Source of the DNA: Candidatus Saccharimonadota bacterium
GTDB lineage: Bacteria; Patescibacteriota; Saccharimonadia; Saccharimonadales; Saccharimonadaceae
Assembly: GCA_025349965.1 (NCBI GenBank)
Contig: CP075337.1
Location: 630,001-662,000, forward strand
Length of the DNA: 32,000 nucleotides
Reading direction: 5' to 3'
Positions 6,594-32,000 of this stretch are shown here, piece by piece (the first letter of the stretch is position 1; every line of letters starts with the position of its first letter). Both the position numbers and the translations under genes were made by a program. Below the pieces are notes generated by a model, which searched no databases, had not been told where the DNA came from, and worked only from the letters and a program-made list of their open reading frames with translations.

Positions 6594-7235
6594 TTAAGCG
6601 AAGAGGTCAGCGCCGAACTGTACAAATACAAGCGCAATCATGAGTACAATCCAAGTTGCCACGATAAGTTGGTGGTATCCGCTCTTGAGGAAGTTTTGGA
6701 CTTTTTCATTTGTCTTTTTACCGAAGCCGAGGAGATTCTGACGTAGCGTAATATGGGTCACCGCCGCAAGCATCAGCGTACAGCTAAAGGTTACCACGAG
6801 ACACCATGGGCAAAGCACCTGAATGACGTACACACTGTTAAAGAAGAGCCAATAGGCAAAGATTGTACCGAGGAGTACACCGATGTTAAGCGCAAGAAGG
6901 AACCAACGCCTGTAGATCGCACCACCCCAAATTGCCGCTACCGCAACGGCTACGAGCACAGGAAACGCCATCAGGCCAATAAACATATTTGGAATACCAA
7001 AGAAGACACTCGCCTGCCATGTCTGCATAACCGTCGCACAGTTTAAGACAAGATTAAAGCTACATGAAAGCACCGCATCCGGATTCTTAAGAAGGTGAAT
7101 TTCCTCTAAACTCAGCACAAAAGCTGCGATGAGTGCCAACACCGCGCCAATAAAGAGTACGATAAACGACGTACGAATACTTCGCTCTTCGGTTTTACTG
7201 TCTTTCTTCTTAAATAATGCGCCGAATGCCGTCAT
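6594..7235 (-). CDS. Vitamin K epoxide reductase (VKOR)-family membrane oxidoreductase
   Basis: Polytopic membrane protein with a loop cysteine pair (CSFNLVLNC) and a CPWC active-site motif in a TM helix. SD AGAAGGA lies upstream of the ATG. Confidence 0.8.
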   Translation of the reverse strand: MTAFGALFKKKDSKTEERSIRTSFIVLFIGAVLALIAAFVLSLEEIHLLKNPDAVLSCSFNLVLNCATVMQTWQASVFFGIPNMFIGLMAFPVLVAVAVAAIWGGAIYRRWFLLALNIGVLLGTIFAYWLFFNSVYVIQVLCPWCLVVTFSCTLMLAAVTHITLRQNLLGFGKKTNEKVQNFLKSGYHQLIVATWIVLMIALVFVQFGADLFA

Positions 7236-7254
7236 GGTGTTTCCTTCTCTTTAA

Positions 7255-22051: not shown

Positions 22052-23848
22052 TTACAGTCCGAAGCGAGTCTTAATATACTGCTGGGCTTCAAGTGAAAGC
22101 TGGCCAGAGTGAGCGATACGAGTGTCGCCGTATTCGCTATAAAAGTCTTGCGGGAAGTTATTAAGTAGATCCTGGTGAACTGAATACCAGTCCGCCTCAC
22201 TCAAACCAAGACTCTGGAAGAAGGCAATACCACCCTCGCCCGGTTCAATTGCAAAGGAAGGATCAGCCATAATCTCGGGAGCCTCAGGCTCTGGGCGCAT
22301 CTCGCCATCCTGCTGGTCAACAATTTCCTTCACATCATCACCTGTAAAAGGAGTTTCTTGCGGTTCAGTTGACACTTCAGGCTTGGGCGACGCCGCATGG
22401 ACATCACCACTGACTGTGCGGTTCATCCAGCCATCAGTAAGGCCAGAGTCAATCAGTGCGTGCGCAGCAAACCCCACACCGGCACCAAGCGCGATACCAC
22501 CGAGCCCAGCCGCTGCAGAACGGCGACGCTTACGCTGCTCATTGCTTGTATCTTTTTCAAGCTGACTATTAAAATAGGTTTGAGCAGATTCAAAGTCGGC
22601 CGCATCTTTAGCATCTCCTGTCGACTCAACCTCTTCAAGGCCAAGTAGTGCGGTATGCTCACGCTCTGCGCGCGCATCAGCACCAATGTAATCAAGGGCC
22701 TTTTCCTTATGAGACTCGTCAAGTTCCTGAAGACCACGACCTTTTTTGGCATCACTGCGAGCAAAGCCACGGCCAAATCGCGCAGCGCCAGTAATAAGCG
22801 CGGCACTACCAGCGCCAATCGCAGCCACACCGGCAACACCGGCCGCAGCACCGATAGCTGTACCTACCGCAGCGGCAGACACACCTATAAGTGCACCCTT
22901 CGCAATACGCGTTGCGACATTACCACGGTTCATCCATTCAATAACTTTACTTACCTTTGAGTCTTTAATTTGCTCGAGTGATTCCTCGCGAAGGCGCGCC
23001 TGCTCATCAAACAGAAAGGCGATGACCGTCGCATTCTTCTCTGTGGCGCTCAAAGATTCATCTTCAAGGGTCTCGGCAAGCTTTACCTTACCAAGCTTCT
23101 GGATATGTTCATTGTACTCATTTTGGAGGGCTTCGTATTCCCTGCTAAGCTTTCCGCCACTAAGAGTAAAGAGGCGTTGTTGGCGTTTGGCACTCAGAGT
23201 AGCCATCTTTGTACGAAGAGTATCAAGATGAGCTTCGGAGGATTCAATAAAAGGATCTATCGCTTCCAGAGGCACACTGTCATTACCGGCATTCAAATCT
23301 GCAGCCAACTCTTCTTCAACACCATCTTCACTAGTGGTTGTGTCGATGTTAGCCTCTGCGATGCGTCGTTCAAGATGGGTTCCAACAGAAAGGCGCGATT
23401 GAAAGCTTACGGCACGCTCACCCTCCTCATTCGCATCACCGCGGTACCAGTCATGATCAGGAATAACAGAAAACTTTTGCACATCAGCGTAAATACGTTT
23501 GTAGTCATGCGCGTCTTTCGACAGACCACTCCCACCTAGATAGCGCTCTATCACCTCTTCGCGTGCTTTCTTTTCCGCAAAACGAGCCTTTAGCCCGCTA
23601 CCAGCAGCCTGACGAGCGGAATCACCCGCTTCGTTGAGCGCAAGGCGTAACGCCGAAAGGCCATCGACGTCGTACACTTGCTTGAGTGTCGTAAATGGCT
23701 CTTGATTGTAGTACTCCACCCTATTATCAGGTGACTGGTGTATGTCTTCCTGTGAATACTCGTCCTGCTCATTTTGAAGCAGTGCACTCTCAGGAGGGGT
23801 GATATTTTCTGACTGTGTATGTTCTTGGGTGGAAGTGGTGGTTTCCAT
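22052..23848 (-). CDS. Large hypothetical membrane protein with two Gly/Ala-zipper hydrophobic segments
   Basis: 598 aa from ATG 23848 (METTTSTQEH...). Hydrophobic G/A-rich segments at about 22778-22897 (GALIGVSAAAVGTAIGAAAGVAGVAAIGAGSAALITGAA) and about 22451-22516 (AAAGLGGIALGAGVGFAAHALI). No recognised domain. Confidence 0.7.
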   Translation of the reverse strand: METTTSTQEHTQSENITPPESALLQNEQDEYSQEDIHQSPDNRVEYYNQEPFTTLKQVYDVDGLSALRLALNEAGDSARQAAGSGLKARFAEKKAREEVIERYLGGSGLSKDAHDYKRIYADVQKFSVIPDHDWYRGDANEEGERAVSFQSRLSVGTHLERRIAEANIDTTTSEDGVEEELAADLNAGNDSVPLEAIDPFIESSEAHLDTLRTKMATLSAKRQQRLFTLSGGKLSREYEALQNEYNEHIQKLGKVKLAETLEDESLSATEKNATVIAFLFDEQARLREESLEQIKDSKVSKVIEWMNRGNVATRIAKGALIGVSAAAVGTAIGAAAGVAGVAAIGAGSAALITGAARFGRGFARSDAKKGRGLQELDESHKEKALDYIGADARAEREHTALLGLEEVESTGDAKDAADFESAQTYFNSQLEKDTSNEQRKRRRSAAAGLGGIALGAGVGFAAHALIDSGLTDGWMNRTVSGDVHAASPKPEVSTEPQETPFTGDDVKEIVDQQDGEMRPEPEAPEIMADPSFAIEPGEGGIAFFQSLGLSEADWYSVHQDLLNNFPQDFYSEYGDTRIAHSGQLSLEAQQYIKTRFGL

Positions 23849-23857
23849 AATATATAC

Positions 23858-23886
23858 ATAGTAGCACTTATGCTTGTTTTTGTCAA
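23858..23886 (-). promoter_or_regulatory. Near-consensus promoter TTGACA-17-TACTAT (with TGc), 9 nt upstream of ATG 23848
   Basis: -35 at 23881-23886, -10 at 23858-23863, 17-nt spacer, no SD. Confidence 0.65.
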
Positions 23887-23903
23887 GATATACCACAAGC
23901 ATA

Positions 23904-23932
23904 TTGACATAATTGCATATTTATGATAGTAT
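23904..23932 (+). promoter_or_regulatory. Promoter TTGACA-17-TAGTAT (TGa extended -10) reading into the high-GC island
   Basis: -35 at 23904-23909, -10 at 23927-23932. Back-to-back with the minus-strand promoter. Confidence 0.6.
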
Positions 23933-23942
23933 AAGTTCAGTA

Positions 23943-24129
23943 TTCGGACTGCGGTCCGGAAGCCCCTTAAAATACGTGGAATCGCTGCGACATCCGTGAA
24001 TGGGTATCTACCCCCTTTGCAGATGTCGTAGAGATTCTACGACACGCCCTGTTACATAGACAGAGTGCCGGACAATTTAATATAGCAATTTGTTCGGCAC
24101 GAACGCCGACCCTACCGTAAGGAAACACC
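23943..24129 (+). promoter_or_regulatory. Structured ~190-nt 5' leader of the island gene
   Basis: Hairpins: UUCGGAC-UGCG-GUCCGGA (23943-23960), GUCGUAGA-gau-UCUACGAC (24025-24043), and a 14-bp imperfect inverted repeat (24065-24100). SD AAGGAAACACC precedes ATG 24130. Confidence 0.5.
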
Positions 24130-24963
24130 ATGAAGATCAATTTCGATACCGCCGTCGCCGACTTCAACAAGAAGCAGGAAGAGGAGATCAATGAGCTCGG
24201 TGGACAGCTGTTCGCCGCCATCAACGATCTCATCGAGAACGGTGTCCCCGGGCGAAAGCTCGCCCACAGCGAGCAGGTCATGTTCCTCACGAACATGACC
24301 GCGTTCACGAACGATGCCCGCTGTGGCACCAGCAACGGTGCCCTGCCCACCTTCAATGTACCCGCTGCCGCGCCCGCAACGCCAGCTGCCGTCGCCCTCC
24401 CCGCCGGAGGTGCGAACAGCAGCCACGACGCGAGCGAGTCGGCTTCGACCAAGAAGGATCTGGACAGCGCGATGGAGCTGATCTCGGCGCTGGTCGACGG
24501 TGACGACAACGTCATCTACGACCCCAGCACCGACAAGGTGAACATCGAGCAGACCCTCGCCAACGTTCGCGACGCTCGCACGGCCCAGGCCAAGGAGCTG
24601 AACGACCTCAGGCAGAAGCTGCGGGAGGCCGAGGTCGCCAAGGAAGAAGCCTTCCGCGATAAGACCACCGCCGAAACCGCCAAGGCCAGCGCCGAGCGAG
24701 AGCTCGCAGAGGCCAAGTCGGCCGACACGGCGACGAAGGTTCTGCCGGCCAACATGGTCGACAAGGCCGAGGTCGCCAAGATCGGCAAGGAGCTGGCGTC
24801 GAACATGCGTTCGGCGAAGCTCGGCACCGACAAGGTGGTCATCACCCGCGACGACGTCGCAAAGTGGGCCGCCAAGACGGATGAGCTGATCGGCGGAGAG
24901 GTTCTCCAGAAGCTGGTCGGTGCACCGACGGTGCCGTCGCCGGCGATTCACTCGCACTCGTAA
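24130..24963 (+). CDS. Orphan coiled-coil protein, compositionally foreign (high GC, high GC3)
   Basis: 277 aa with nearly all third codon positions G/C. Has a Pro/Ala linker (PAAAPATPAAVALPAGG) and a charged heptad-like region (AKELNDLRQKLREAEVAKEEAFRDKTTAETAKASAERELAEAKSA). SD is present. Antisense ORFs are typical high-GC artefacts. Confidence 0.75.
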   Translation: MKINFDTAVADFNKKQEEEINELGGQLFAAINDLIENGVPGRKLAHSEQVMFLTNMTAFTNDARCGTSNGALPTFNVPAAAPATPAAVALPAGGANSSHDASESASTKKDLDSAMELISALVDGDDNVIYDPSTDKVNIEQTLANVRDARTAQAKELNDLRQKLREAEVAKEEAFRDKTTAETAKASAERELAEAKSADTATKVLPANMVDKAEVAKIGKELASNMRSAKLGTDKVVITRDDVAKWAAKTDELIGGEVLQKLVGAPTVPSPAIHSHS

Positions 24964-25016
24964 CAGGGCACTCCACTGGGTGCACCGCTAGTACACGCTG
25001 AAAAGCTGTGGAACGC

Positions 25017-25041
25017 GGTGCCCCGGTGGCACACCTTTTTT
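25017..25041 (+). terminator. Rho-independent terminator 1 after the island gene
   Basis: GGUGCC-ccggu-GGCACACC followed by TTTTTT. Confidence 0.65.
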
Positions 25042-25053
25042 AGAAATCATCAT

Positions 25054-25077
25054 CCGCACCATTACGTGCGGTTTTTT
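25054..25077 (+). terminator. Rho-independent terminator 2
   Basis: CCGCAC-cattac-GTGCGG followed by TTTTTT. Confidence 0.7.
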
Positions 25078-25083
25078 ATTGCC

Positions 25084-25115
25084 AAAATAAAAGCACCCGT
25101 CACTGGGTGCTTTTT
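25084..25115. terminator. Bidirectional terminator (infB side)
   Basis: AAAATAAAA-GCACCC-gtcact-GGGTGC-TTTTT, immediately after the infB stop codon. Confidence 0.75.
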
Positions 25116-25117
25116 GT

Positions 25118-26887
25118 TTAAGCCAGGTGGCGTTCTACGACTTCGCGCGTAAAGAATTCAAGATGGTCACCGATTTCAAGCAATGTCTTTTTGTCCGTCT
25201 TAAGCGTAAGTCCACACATATCACCTTCAAAGACTTCTTTGGCGGCGATTTTCTCGCGTTGGAGGCTGGTAATTTCAGCTTCACCAAGGCCCTCATCGCC
25301 ACGCTTCATGCGTACGAGAAGGCCTGGAGTAATTTTGCCAGTAACTACCTGTCCGCCGGCAATAACTTCGTCCTTCAATGTACGGAAGACACCCTTCACT
25401 TCAAGGATACCAACTTCAGTCTCAACTACCTCTGGCGCTAGAAGTTTTTCCATTGAATTCTTTGCATCATCAAGGAGTTCGTAAATAATCTTGTAGAGAC
25501 GTACTTCAGCGCGCTCACGAGTAGCAAGTTGCTTCACAGCAGGTGGAAGTTCAACATTGAAGCCGTAGATAATTGTCTTACCGTCGCTGGCAAGGCGAAT
25601 GTCATTCTCGGTAATGTTACCGATGCCACTACTCACAACATGGAGGGATACTTCCCCACCGGTTTCGATGAGTTTAAGGCTGTCAATAACAGAGGTCAAT
25701 GAACCCTGCACGTCTGCCTTTACAATAATGTTAAAGTCAGCCGCTTCGTGCTTCTGGGTCATCATCTTAAGGATGTCTGCGCCGGTGACGTTTGCGCTGG
25801 CAGCGCTGTCTTCACGCTCCTTGCGTGTTTCGGCCGCACGAGCACGAGCTTCTTTTTCATTCTTCACAACCTGGAAAATATCACCAAACTGTGGCAATTC
25901 TTTGAATCCGGTTACCGTTACCGGTGTTGAAGGGCCGGCCTCTTTAATTGCCTTGCCAGTAAAGTCTTCGAGGGTACGAACCTTGCCGTACGCAGTACCT
26001 GCAACCATGAACATACCCGGTTTGAGTACACCCTGTTCAACCAGGAAACCTACCACCGCACCACGGCCAATTTCCATGTGCGCTTCAATCACAAGTCCTT
26101 CGGCAGAAGTTTCAACTTCAGCCTTGAGCTCTTCCATATCGGCAACGAGGAGGACCATATCAAGGAGTTGGTCAACGCCTTGTCCTGTTTTCGCGCTTAC
26201 CTCAACCATCACCGTGTCACCACCCCATGCTTCTGGGTTGAGACCATGTTCGCTGGCGAGTTGTGCCATTACCATTTGAGGGTTAGCGGCTTCTTTATCA
26301 ATCTTGTTGATTGCAACCACGATCTTGGCATTTGCGGTGCGCGCGAAGCGGATTGCTTCAATGGTCTGCGGTTTTACACCATCATCAGCGGCAACAACAA
26401 TAATCACTACGTCGGTAAGGGTTGCACCGTGCTGGCGGAGCGCAGCAAAAGCTTCATGCCCTGGCGTATCAAGCAGTGTAATAGTGCGCTCTTTTCGCAC
26501 TGTTTGGTAGGCGCTAATGTGCTGGGTGATGCCACCGGCCTCACCTTCAACTACCTTTTGGCCTAAAATTGAATCCAGAAGACTGGTTTTACCGTGGTCA
26601 ACGTGTCCCATCACCGCAACAATTGGCGGACGCGCCACTGCCTTGTCAGACAATTCACGCGTTGGGCGTTCTGCTGCCGCGGCAACCTCTTTCTTCTGAA
26701 GCTCAACGTCGAGGCCAAGCTCTTCTACAATAATGGTTGCTGTTTCAAAATCGATACGCTGGTTAATGGTTGCAGCGATACCGTTCTTGAAGAGCTCTCC
26801 AATAAGAGTTGTAACAGGCAAATTCAGAACATCAGCAAGTTCACCTACTGTAATTGAATTTGCAATAGATAACACTTTTTCTGCCAT
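25118..26887 (-). CDS. infB: Translation initiation factor IF-2 (short N-terminus)
   Basis: GTPase motifs [17 protein letters not shown] and NKID. C-terminal IF-2 domains present. Confidence 0.95.
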
Positions 26888-31285: not shown

Positions 31286-31483
31286 CTATTTATCCTCAGT
31301 CTTGCGGCGACGCGAAATACGTCCACCCTTTGCACCTGCAATACGTGCAAGTTCAGGGTTTGCTGCGAATCCACCAGTACGTCCAAGCTTTCCGCCCTTA
31401 CGTCCGATTTCAGCGTAAAAATTAGGGTTCTTTGCTAGGTTCTTTGCTGCTGCCTTCTGTCCGCCTGCTTTTGTTCCTGCCAT
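31286..31483 (-). CDS. KGG-repeat general stress protein (YciG/GsiB-like)
   Basis: GRKGGKLGRTGGFAANPELARIAGAKGG repeats. Start at ATG 31483 with AGGAG 9 nt upstream. Confidence 0.7.
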   Translation of the reverse strand: MAGTKAGGQKAAAKNLAKNPNFYAEIGRKGGKLGRTGGFAANPELARIAGAKGGRISRRRKTEDK

Positions 31484-31605
31484 GGGGTTATACTCCTGTG
31501 GGTTCACTTTCCCACACAATTAAAAAGATTTCCACACACCAAATGGCGTGGAAACCCTCATTTATACCTCACATATGCGATATCACTCGCAATGCTTATG
31601 ATTCC

Positions 31606-31634
31606 ATAATATCATAGCTTATGCTTTTTGTCAA
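31606..31634 (-). promoter_or_regulatory. Promoter TTGACA-17-TATTAT (TGa extended -10) for the KGG gene, with a ~115-nt leader
   Basis: -35 at 31629-31634, -10 at 31606-31611. The leader contains hairpins at 31529-31554 and 31498-31515, the latter abutting the SD. Confidence 0.55.
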
Positions 31635-31703
31635 GTTTTACATGAGCATTATTTTATGGTTTTATATTATTTGCTATTTCACACTATTATGTTTATGCTA
31701 GTG

Positions 31704-31732
31704 TTGCATATATGCGAATCATGGGATATTAT
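31704..31732 (+). promoter_or_regulatory. Promoter TTGCAT-17-TATTAT with no downstream ORF
   Basis: -35 at 31704-31709 overlaps the palindrome GCATATATGC (31706-31715). -10 at 31727-31732. Confidence 0.45.
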
Positions 31733-31738
31733 AGATAT

Positions 31739-31898
31739 AAGCCTTTGCGGTTCATATATCATATATGAAGTCAGTAAAGACGGCACCTGTTTGAATCTTT
31801 CTCAAAAATAAAGAAGATTCGTCAAAAAGCTTCTGGTTCGCAGCAACCACCACAAGAAGCACAAATGAAAACACCCGATCTGCGAGACGGGTGTTTTT
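31739..31898 (+). ncRNA. Candidate ~160-nt small RNA (promoter-to-terminator unit without a credible ORF)
   Basis: Bounded by the promoter at 31704-31732 and the terminator at 31867-31898. Contains a 19-bp palindrome (31751-31769) and a hairpin (31793-31820). The longest internal ORF that does not run into the terminator is 9 codons. Confidence 0.3.
31867..31898. terminator. Rho-independent terminator (possibly bidirectional)
   Basis: AAAACACCCG-atctgcgaga-CGGGTGTTTTT. On the minus strand it is followed by TTTTCATTT. Confidence 0.65.
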
Positions 31899-31903
31899 GC
31901 TTT

Positions 31904-31912
31904 TGTTATACT
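31904..31912 (+). promoter_or_regulatory. Extended -10 promoter TGtTATACT, 13 nt upstream of ATG 31926
   Basis: Reads ttTGtTATACTatatgtaaggcttATG. Confidence 0.45.
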
Positions 31913-31925
31913 ATATGTAAGGCTT

Positions 31926-32000
31926 ATGGTTAAGAAAAACGCCCGCAATAGACCAAAAATAAATACCACAAAGAAATATACGTGGCCTTTATTAATAGGT
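31926..32000 (+). CDS. 5' end of a CDS running off the window (MVKKNARNRPKINTTKKYTWPLLIG...)
   Basis: Open for 25 codons to the window end. The promoter geometry matches other genes here, and a basic N-terminus followed by a hydrophobic onset suggests a membrane protein. Confidence 0.35.
   Translation, partial: MVKKNARNRPKINTTKKYTWPLLIG

Follow-up and report, generated by a model that had tools for sequence, protein, structure and literature searches.

Several bacterial RNAs are known in which complementary stretches bring the two ends of a unit together. The mRNAs of hbs from Bacillus subtilis and icaR from Staphylococcus aureus are stabilised or controlled by pairing between their 5' untranslated region (UTR) and their 3' end, while in the rRNA processing stalks and at the RNase III sites flanking the early mRNAs of phage T7 it is a pair of complementary flanks that encloses the unit. 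Here, a gene whose transcript is predicted to be closed in a comparable manner is described in Candidatus Saccharibacteria bacterium TM7i, an epibiont cultured on Leucobacter aridicollis J1 (PMC9894109). The TM7i sequence analysed is a 32-kb window, meaning the whole stretch of DNA, and the coding sequence (CDS) in question (24130..24963, + strand) encodes a protein of 277 aa identical to KI440_03460 of this organism. Together with its promoter, its leader and its 3' UTR, this CDS is referred to below as the cassette. The account towards which we lean, if only modestly, is that it represents a resident accessory cassette of one Saccharibacteria lineage, whose high GC content at third codon positions (GC3) is held in place, probably by selection on the structure or stability of the mRNA.

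Composition, relatives and rates of change

The CDS has a GC content of 0.637, distributed over the codon positions as GC1/2/3 = 0.63/0.43/0.85, whereas the GC3 of the 28 other open reading frames (ORFs) of the window ranges from 0.35 to 0.56 and is typically ~0.45. In a 400-nt sliding profile, a GC of 0.65 is reached only at 24200-25000, with values of 0.37-0.56 elsewhere. These computations bear out an earlier note on this DNA, which had judged the CDS by eye to be sharply richer in GC than its flanks, and which had also been right in supposing a Saccharibacteria genome with an actinobacterial host, now recognised as TM7i with Leucobacter. Codon choice in the CDS is extreme (AAG 22/22, CTG+CTC 21/21, TCG+AGC 17/17, ACC+ACG 20/20), the codons TTT, CTT, ACT and ACA being absent, and the pooled codon use of the cassettes from TM7i and its relatives correlates with that of high-GC ORFs (r = 0.95) far better than with that of native genes (0.27). 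The anomaly is confined to the CDS and is specific to codon position: the leaders have a GC of 0.39-0.54 and the 3' UTRs of 0.54-0.65, against a GC3 of 0.85-0.97 in the cassettes, and the divergent membrane-protein gene that carries a twin promoter shows a normal GC3 of 0.44. An antisense ORF at 24112-24957 was rejected as a by-product of GC3 periodicity, the + strand displaying the frame pattern GC3 > GC1 > GC2. The lowest GC of the 32 kb is found at the right end of the window (31400-32000, 0.33-0.37).

The earlier note had regarded the gene as an orphan, possibly derived from the host or from an actinophage. However, an exhaustive HMMER pass over 1.84 billion protein representatives retrieved two genuine relatives, namely P0002 (29% identity, E = 1e-10) and P0003 (E = 8.5e-7), together with a third match, P0004 (1,719 aa, E = 6e-4), that looked spurious. 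The locus of P0002 shows the gene order of TM7i (DUF5663, membrane protein, cassette, infB), with a GC3 of 0.86 in a locus of GC 0.52, and the same order is found in P0003, which lies on a short 2.3-kb contig. In addition, 80 species-level Saccharibacteria loci around infB (L001-L080) were fetched, most of the relatives being metagenome-assembled genomes. Nine of these loci (L005, L010, L018, L046, L047, L057, L067, L071 and L076) contain, directly after infB and on the opposite strand as in TM7i, an ORF of 211-269 aa with a GC3 of 0.85-0.97, and the order DUF5663, membrane protein, cassette, infB recurs in L081, L203 and L204. Altogether, a homologous cassette is present at this site in no fewer than 13 further Saccharibacteria assemblies, with infB identities of 65-88%, and these cassettes encode helical proteins of 211-277 aa whose GC3 is 0.85-0.97 in every lineage.

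The proteins themselves are hardly alike in sequence. When every ORF of the 80 sister loci was searched by phmmer with the window protein, no match was obtained even at E = 10; the proteins of the sister loci carry its layout and short motifs, and their homology became apparent only by way of P0002, P0003 and profile-profile comparison. Two groups are distinguished in what follows, group 1, to which TM7i belongs, and group 2. A profile built from four sister proteins led to 51 group-2 database clusters, nearly all with only 1-3 member sequences, whose named members are all Saccharibacteria-type hypothetical proteins. When the TM7i type was compared with a 50-member group 2 by hhalign, the two were related with a probability of 93% (E = 3e-7) over 181 collinear columns. 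A mixed alignment of 12 members, used as a search profile, yielded 3 hits only, the word prefilter being the limiting step. The group-2 members P0016 and P0040 exhibit the same synteny, with a GC3 of 0.88 and 0.91, and are followed by a small GC3-rich membrane protein (0.83 and 0.88) and then by genes of normal composition. This second GC3-rich gene of group 2 (0.83-0.92) encodes a multi-pass membrane protein of 119-130 aa and lies ~200 nt downstream of the coiled-coil gene (L203 5884-6276; L204 5920-6306; L046 8233-8610; L057 9378-9758; L076 9479-9838).

In the infB tree, the cassette types follow the clades, with many absences, from which we infer vertical inheritance with repeated loss. The earlier note had also asked whether sister genomes hold the gene, and had stated that orthologues of the same composition throughout the lineage would indicate an ancient resident. 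Such orthologues are indeed present across a deep clade, with infB identity down to ~65%, and because they lie at the same locus the gene has to be considered an old resident rather than an orphan import.

The rates of change point in the same direction. Between TM7i and L081, identity amounts to 92% for IF-2 (pN, the proportion of nonsynonymous differences, 0.05), 75% for DUF5663, 52% for the membrane protein and 29% for the cassette protein (pN 0.49), so that the latter diverges ~tenfold faster than IF-2; nucleotide identity is 90% in the promoter region and 58-75% in the UTRs. Over ten genome pairs, the cassette shows a pN of 0.32-0.57 versus 0.08-0.14 for infB, with a crude dN/dS of ~0.7-1.5 and short conserved motifs in a variable scaffold. 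The corresponding proportion of synonymous differences (pS) is 0.71-0.86 for infB, which is saturated, and 0.39-0.51 for the cassette, about as much as saturation would produce if only G or C were allowed at third positions. An imported composition would thus have had time to decay since these lineages separated, and as GC3 is still 0.85-0.97, a persistent force specific to this gene is needed. Atypical composition is routinely read as recent transfer; a cassette that kept such a GC3 amid ~0.45 while the synonymous sites of infB became saturated is a warning for the application of island-detection methods to Patescibacteria.

Predicted structure of the transcript

The leader of the cassette is predicted to pair with the end of its own CDS; neither this pairing nor the 57-nt hairpin of the 3' UTR described below had been noticed in the earlier note. 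The 5' arm GCCCTGTTAC (24046-24055, + strand) is the perfect complement, over 10 bp, of the 3' arm GTAACAGGGC (24960..24969, + strand), which overlaps the stop codon TAA (24961-24963), and the pairing therefore brackets the whole CDS. In the window, this helix has a P of 0.007 versus shuffles and is accompanied by weaker extra pairs back to ~24947. The leader/stop-codon pairing appears in 13/13 unconstrained full-length folds, with transcripts of 940-1115 nt, and its leader arm is found at the homologous position in every cassette, just 3' of a long hairpin. The sequences of the arms are clade-specific, being CCCTGTYAC/GTRACAGGG in group 1, CCCATCAGC/GCTGATGGG in group 2, CTCTACACCACATCA/TGATGTGGCGTAGAG in L071 and CCTACACC/GGTGTGGG in L067. 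The U·G wobbles present in the arms of L081, L047 and L204 argue for a pairing that takes place in the RNA and not for an inverted repeat of the DNA. Complementarity between the leader and the 3' end, the hallmark of hbs and icaR, is thus conserved in the relatives of this cassette.

Transcription would start at ~23939, giving a structured 5' leader of 191 nt (23939..24129, + strand) that folds at -75 kcal/mol, with minimum free energy (MFE) z scores of -6.0 and -7.2. Leaders of 190-280 nt are more stable than dinucleotide shuffles in 11/11 cassettes (z = -3.6 to -7.2). On the + strand of the window, the leader comprises a 5'-terminal hairpin P1 (23940-23963), a conserved single-stranded segment CCTTAAAA (23965-23972), a long hairpin P2 (23975-24041) supported by covariation, and a hairpin P3 (24065-24099). 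In the alignment of the five group-1 leaders including P2, 28 pairs are formed, with 96% of cells paired, and 11 pairs have changed on both sides, compared with 5.2±1.5 in shuffled alignments (0/500) and 1-2 in slid controls. In group 2, the values are 55 pairs, 90% of cells paired and 20 pairs changed on both sides, versus 8.4±2.0 (0/500) and 1-6, respectively. Of the hairpins proposed in the earlier note, the one at the 5' end and that at 24065-24099 are real, whereas the perfect 8-bp hairpin (24024-24044) does not stand as an element of its own, as it is one of two alternative pairings within the covarying hairpin 23975-24041. In this hairpin, the partner of the middle segment GTCGTAG (24025-24031) can be either 23985-23991 or 24037-24043. 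Three-segment sets of this kind, in which a middle segment pairs with either flank, occur in both the leader and the 3' UTR, with both alternatives kept in the relatives, and in group 2 a four-segment set is arranged around CATTGTGG, CCCACAATG, CATTGTGTGGG and CCACACAA. These alternative pairings, as predicted, suggest RNA switching. Searches with the Rfam 15 covariance models gave no gathering-score match in the window, with only sub-threshold chance hits at 23800-25200, and none except rRNA in five sister loci.

A 19-codon upstream ORF, MGIYPLCRCRRDSTTRPVT (24000-24059, + strand), lies within P2 and ends inside the 5' arm of the leader/stop-codon pairing. A leader peptide encoded by it was rejected, and the ORF is probably fortuitous, because it is not conserved in L081.

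Downstream of the CDS, a 57-nt hairpin of the 3' UTR (24973..25029, + strand) is formed by CCACTGGGTGCACCGC (24973-24988) and GCGGTGCCCCGGTGG (25015-25029), contains an inner hairpin and is also supported by covariation. The group-1 alignment shows 22 pairs, with 97% paired, and 9 double changes against 3.3±1.3 in shuffled alignments (0/500) and 0-1 in slid controls. Its 3' arm alternatively builds the stem of the first terminator (24973-24988 / 25015-25029 / 25025-25032), and the 3' UTR as a whole folds with a z of -4.6 in the window and of -3.9 to -6.7 in 11/11 cassettes. The internal loop of this hairpin, TAGTAC (24989-24994) / GGAAC (25010-25014), is invariant in all five group-1 cassettes. 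The loop E or sarcin-ricin motif (bulged-G, S-turn) is characterised by the strand signature AGUA / GAA, which the group-1 loop, read as UAGUAC / GGAAC, matches as a sequence resemblance only; the group-2 counterpart differs, with CGUAC / GUCAC instead. In a metagenome scan with a degenerate 20-mer derived from the 3' hairpin, nearly all hits (~119 of 120) were fortuitous matches to high-GC genomes, and the sole real match, L094, is a duplicate of L005.

The coding RNA is unusually structured as well. The CDS of the window folds with a z of -4.9 versus dinucleotide shuffles and of -4.4 versus synonymous-codon permutations, a test that keeps the protein and the codon counts and swaps synonymous codons only. 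Under this test, the native sequence is more stable in 11/11 cassettes (z = -1.2 to -6.7, mean -3.4), while 13 control genes average -0.6 (-0.17 for six native genes and -1.0 for seven unrelated high-GC ORFs), a difference with a Mann-Whitney p of 0.0006. The start region, by contrast with these folded parts, is as accessible as in ordinary genes, with a mean unpaired probability of 0.44 in cassettes and 0.44 in controls (p = 0.38) and of 0.65 in the window. The possibility of a stored, translationally repressed mRNA with a sequestered start was dismissed for this reason.

The expression signals around this unit look native, strong and insulated, as the earlier note had maintained on the grounds of its promoter, start region and terminators. 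The promoter of the cassette (23904..23932, + strand) consists of a -35 TTGACA, a 17-nt spacer and a TG-extended -10 TAGTAT, and its twin, TTGACA-17-TACTAT, likewise TG-extended, serves the gene of the 598-aa membrane protein from the opposite strand (23858..23886), so that the back-to-back arrangement described in that note was recovered, with a shared control region. The same layout is seen in the sister loci, and TTGAC[AT]-17-T[AG]nnnT is present in 13/13 cassettes, preceded by TG in all except one. The likeliest start of the membrane-protein gene is the ATG at 23848, only 9 nt past the -10 hexamer, which would make its mRNA nearly leaderless; the start of a longer 616-aa ORF, at 23902, falls upstream of the promoter. 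A perfect 9-bp inverted repeat, TATGCTTGT (23869-23877) / ACAAGCATA (23895-23903), brackets the -35 of the membrane-gene promoter and abuts that of the cassette promoter; it is mostly retained in L081 and missing from L005, and it could be an operator common to both promoters.

With a Shine-Dalgarno AAGGA at 24119-24123, the start region AAGGAAACACCATG occurs exactly twice in the window, at 24119-24132 and, on the - strand, at 7233-7246, against a chance expectation of 0.02. The second copy precedes the gene that the earlier note had taken for VKOR, an identity that proved genuine. The three stacked terminators of the same note are all present. The first (GTGCC-CCGGT-GGCAC plus a T6 run, 25018..25041, + strand) is kept in L081 and weaker in L005, L010 and L018, the second (CCGCAC-CATTAC-GTGCGG plus a T7 run, 25054..25078, + strand) is restricted to TM7i and L081, and the third, AAAAGCACCC-GTCACT-GGGTGCTTTTT (25084..25119), is bidirectional and common to the convergent infB, which ends at 25118; an equivalent hairpin is found in the sister loci.

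Explanations for the maintained composition

In the account favoured here, the cassette lies at a fixed site between the 3' end of infB and the divergent gene of a large membrane protein. It is a unit made up of the promoter, the multi-hairpin leader, a strong Shine-Dalgarno sequence with an accessible start, the coiled-coil CDS, the stop-codon pairing, the 3' hairpin and the terminators. A force acting in place on the gene would keep its GC3 high, and the transcript would be built for high stability and good translation. Selection for such a transcript seems the most economical explanation because of the 5' hairpin, the end-to-end pairing, the 3' hairpins, the folding-prone codons and the open start. 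Taken by itself, the proposition that GC3 is maintained by selection at the RNA level is one that we consider probable, with a confidence close to the midpoint. The encoded protein is probably abundant, with a role in structure or interaction, and would evolve in conflict with the host or with phages or under loose sequence constraint, and which may work with the adjacent fast-evolving membrane protein.

Several points weigh against this account. The folding tests are MFE predictions with only 18-25 permutations per gene, one unrelated high-GC control ORF reached a z of -3.9, and the selection on folding could be a consequence, not the cause, of the high GC3. The pairing is weak in single members (P = 0.11-0.30 in L010, L067, L071 and L081) and its arms are invariant within each clade. 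The duplex-energy test of the pairing also gave a weak result (z = +0.5 to -4.8), since any part of a 200-nt leader offers partners to a GC-rich 37-mer; the longest-helix test and the folds of full transcripts were used in its place. The substitution estimates, obtained by the Nei-Gojobori method (NG86), rest on uncertain alignments at 25-35% identity. In L001, which is the closest relative by infB (91%), the cassette is absent, and this patchy presence requires either many losses or some mobility. The stable, highly translated transcript is likewise a reading of sequence features. Finally, an ancient transfer from a high-GC (actinobacterial) donor is possible, because any force that maximises GC3 yields codon use like that of high-GC organisms (the r of 0.95 mentioned above), although ancient transfer would not by itself explain why GC3 has not decayed.

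Among the alternatives, the one that survives best, although we think it unlikely, is the replacement of alleles or cassettes, in which the CDS would be repeatedly swapped by homologous recombination through conserved UTR flanks, from a pool of high-GC alleles in other Saccharibacteria or in an unsampled donor. The protein would then seem hyper-divergent next to similar flanks, and GC3 would mirror the pool rather than selection in place. Saccharibacteria are naturally transformable, the non-coding flanks are better conserved than the CDS, and nearly all of the 51 group-2 clusters hold very few sequences. Moreover, in L045 and L051 this gap is filled by other high-GC genes, which are oriented the opposite way and have start regions of a similar kind. 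Against such swapping, the cassette types track the infB clades unscrambled, and the UTRs diverge with ordinary covariation and without mosaic breakpoints. A pool restricted to Saccharibacteria would still require a force that keeps GC3, and an external pool was not found.

A local, non-adaptive bias towards G or C at third positions, caused by GC-biased gene conversion at a hot spot of recombination or, if the unit is very highly transcribed, by transcription-associated mutation or repair, and unrelated to the RNA features, appears to us rather improbable. It could draw on the structural instability of the infB-DUF5663 gap, which ranges from 20 bp to 5 kb, on the near-consensus promoter, and on the fact that in group 2 the anomaly extends over two adjoining genes, apparently transcribed as one unit, and no further. 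Nevertheless, a regional bias of mutation or conversion is argued against by the restriction of the anomaly to the CDS and to one codon position, with the GC of the leader and of the 3' UTR far lower than GC3, and by the normal GC3 of the gene under the twin promoter. Folding is also favoured by the way in which synonymous codons are arranged, and not by their composition alone, and we know of no bacterial precedent for a compositional shift this large by local bias.

The recent transfer into TM7i of a gene from the host (Leucobacter or other Actinomycetota) or from an actinophage, with later acquisition of native signals, was the origin suggested in the earlier note and is now very improbable. 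It agrees with codon use like that of generic high-GC organisms, with a cultured host that is a high-GC actinobacterium (we take the GC of Leucobacter to be ~67-70%) and with the absence of the gene from L001, the nearest genome by infB. However, at least 13 other assemblies share the promoter, leader, pairing, 3' hairpin, site and GC richness, and of the two relatives obtained from the 1.84 billion representatives one lies at the same Saccharibacteria locus and the other in the same gene order. Neither the tblastn searches of phages and plasmids nor those of viral contigs gave a relative of the window protein, and no actinobacterial, phage or plasmid donor relative was found in the sets searched, which did not include the genome of host strain J1. 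Around the borders, the neighbours are infB, rpsA, DUF5663, fmt and priA, with no integrase or tRNA and no direct repeats involving the island.

No more plausible, in our opinion, is a cassette tuned to the host, in which the mRNA or the gene would be delivered into the attached actinobacterium and translated there as a fast-evolving nucleic-acid effector; actinobacterial codon use, a promoter and Shine-Dalgarno sequence workable in Actinomycetota and a closed, heavily structured transcript resistant to nucleases would all serve such a delivery. If this were true, the cassette would be a nucleic-acid effector in conflict with its host. An assembly chimera joining host reads to the TM7i contig, against which the earlier note had warned, can be set aside with near certainty: the sequenced TM7i DNA came from a co-culture whose host is rich in GC, but both borders of the CDS recur in independent metagenome assemblies (L081/L082, L005/L094 and others), with the promoter and leader conserved on one side and the pairing arm, 3' hairpin and terminators on the other. 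In addition, the genes on either flank are intact and the GC shift falls exactly at the start and stop codons.

Two further mechanisms were considered and rejected. Ordinary translational selection for preferred codons is unlikely, as rpsA and infB, which are probably highly expressed, have a GC3 of only 0.42-0.45. A target of a diversity-generating retroelement is equally disfavoured: no repeat of the CDS exists in the 32-kb window, no reverse transcriptase domain was detected among the ten flanking proteins scanned, and A- and T-ending codons are both depleted, with no adenine-specific pattern.

The protein, its neighbourhood and the known systems

In the window protein, helices at the N-terminus are followed by a disordered Pro/Ala linker (~63-102) and by one long helix (132-202), and the C-terminal helices carry the family motif LPANMVDKAEV. 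Its AlphaFold model, based on 3 sequences, was all-helical with the linker 63-102 disordered, and was judged unusable at a pLDDT (predicted local distance difference test score) of 46, while the model of a group-2 homologue, based on a 50-sequence alignment, reached 85. Foldseek found no match for the latter in PDB or BFVD (E >= 0.9), the sequence search of PDB with the window protein gave only E >= 0.2, and Pfam, PHROGs, PADLOC and NCBIfam returned nothing but sub-threshold coiled-coil noise. The earlier description, in which a Pro/Ala linker leads to a coiled coil in a protein of no known family, is upheld, and the protein is helical. No signal peptide, anchor or transmembrane segment is recognised in the sequence of the window protein. 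The recurrent neighbours are membrane proteins, namely the divergent one of 528-598 aa and, in group 2, also the multi-pass protein of 119-130 aa, and a membrane-associated role of the cassette protein can be guessed at.

The divergent membrane protein of TM7i (22052-23848, - strand) has an acidic N-terminus and two Ala/Gly-rich hydrophobic segments, and its sole Pfam match is a weak one to DUF6240. Compared with its counterpart in L081 (2138-3820), the N-terminal half is nearly unalignable, with 15-42% nucleotide identity in 60-nt windows.

The gap between infB and DUF5663 is itself a structural hot spot among L001-L080. It measures 20-100 bp in ~25 genomes; in others it contains a membrane protein and an ORF of ~125 aa, and in L019 and L020, where an ORF of 1,350 aa is present, it extends to 5 kb. 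In L045 (7791-9700, + strand) and L051 (8389-10210, + strand), this gap holds a different two-gene high-GC block (GC 0.65-0.74), transcribed in the orientation of infB, with a consensus promoter, a leader of 200-280 nt and a similar start region, GAAGGAGAACACCATG; the first protein of the block is a coiled coil with C-terminal transmembrane helices. In L077 (5407-10461), a multi-gene high-GC block (GC3 0.85-0.97) that includes a PP2C phosphatase follows infB in a locus of GC 0.59, and, in contrast to the cassette, this block may represent a genuine island acquired by transfer. Another single gene with an outlying GC3 (200 aa, GC3 0.89) lies upstream of rpsA in L067 (2942-3544, - strand), with its own TTGACA promoter, a short leader and a terminator, and had no match in Pfam and phage searches; because of this outlier, single-gene high-GC units may be more widespread in these genomes.

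If selection on the mRNA is confirmed as the cause, the cassette would be an unusually clear natural case of RNA-level function shaping synonymous sites, and it would offer a ready-made module for stable expression in Saccharibacteria, which have lately become genetically tractable. The cassette and the adjacent membrane protein are also candidates for the epibiont-host or epibiont-phage interface, of which few molecular components are known. The searchable literature yielded no description of this gene or phenomenon, nor of the combination of a fast-evolving protein, a kept composition and a kept, folded mRNA.

Compared with known systems, the cassette shares with transferred islands a sharp break in GC and codon use and a high-GC-like choice of codons. 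However, its deviant composition covers one CDS only and ends exactly at the start and stop codons, without mobility genes or border repeats, and whereas transferred islands ameliorate over time, the cassette is syntenic, its composition has not drifted and no donor was found. By analogy only, the elongated helical or coiled-coil protein with its very high nonsynonymous divergence recalls hypervariable coiled-coil proteins of the surface or of interactions that are shaped by diversifying selection, such as the streptococcal M proteins, from which it differs by the absence of a signal peptide, an anchor or a transmembrane segment and of any similarity in Pfam, PDB or BFVD. With the rRNA stalks and the flanking sites of phage T7, the cassette has in common that upstream and downstream complements are predicted to enclose a functional unit in one long-range helix, although this helix is short (7-18 bp), below typical RNase III substrates, and the unit enclosed is the CDS of a cellular protein.

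From hbs and icaR, the cassette is set apart by a 3' arm that overlaps the stop codon, so that the pairing brackets exactly the CDS, by the retention of this pairing across a deep clade with clade-specific arms, and by a GC3-rich, over-structured CDS; no sequence or Rfam relationship links it to them, and its pairing is predicted from sequence. Even so, as in those two systems, a leader segment is predicted to base-pair with the 3' end of its own transcript, and the 5'-terminal and 3' hairpins are of the kind known to slow the attack of RNases. By analogy, the described systems that the cassette would most resemble in its way of working are therefore the mRNAs protected by pairing between their 5' and 3' UTRs.

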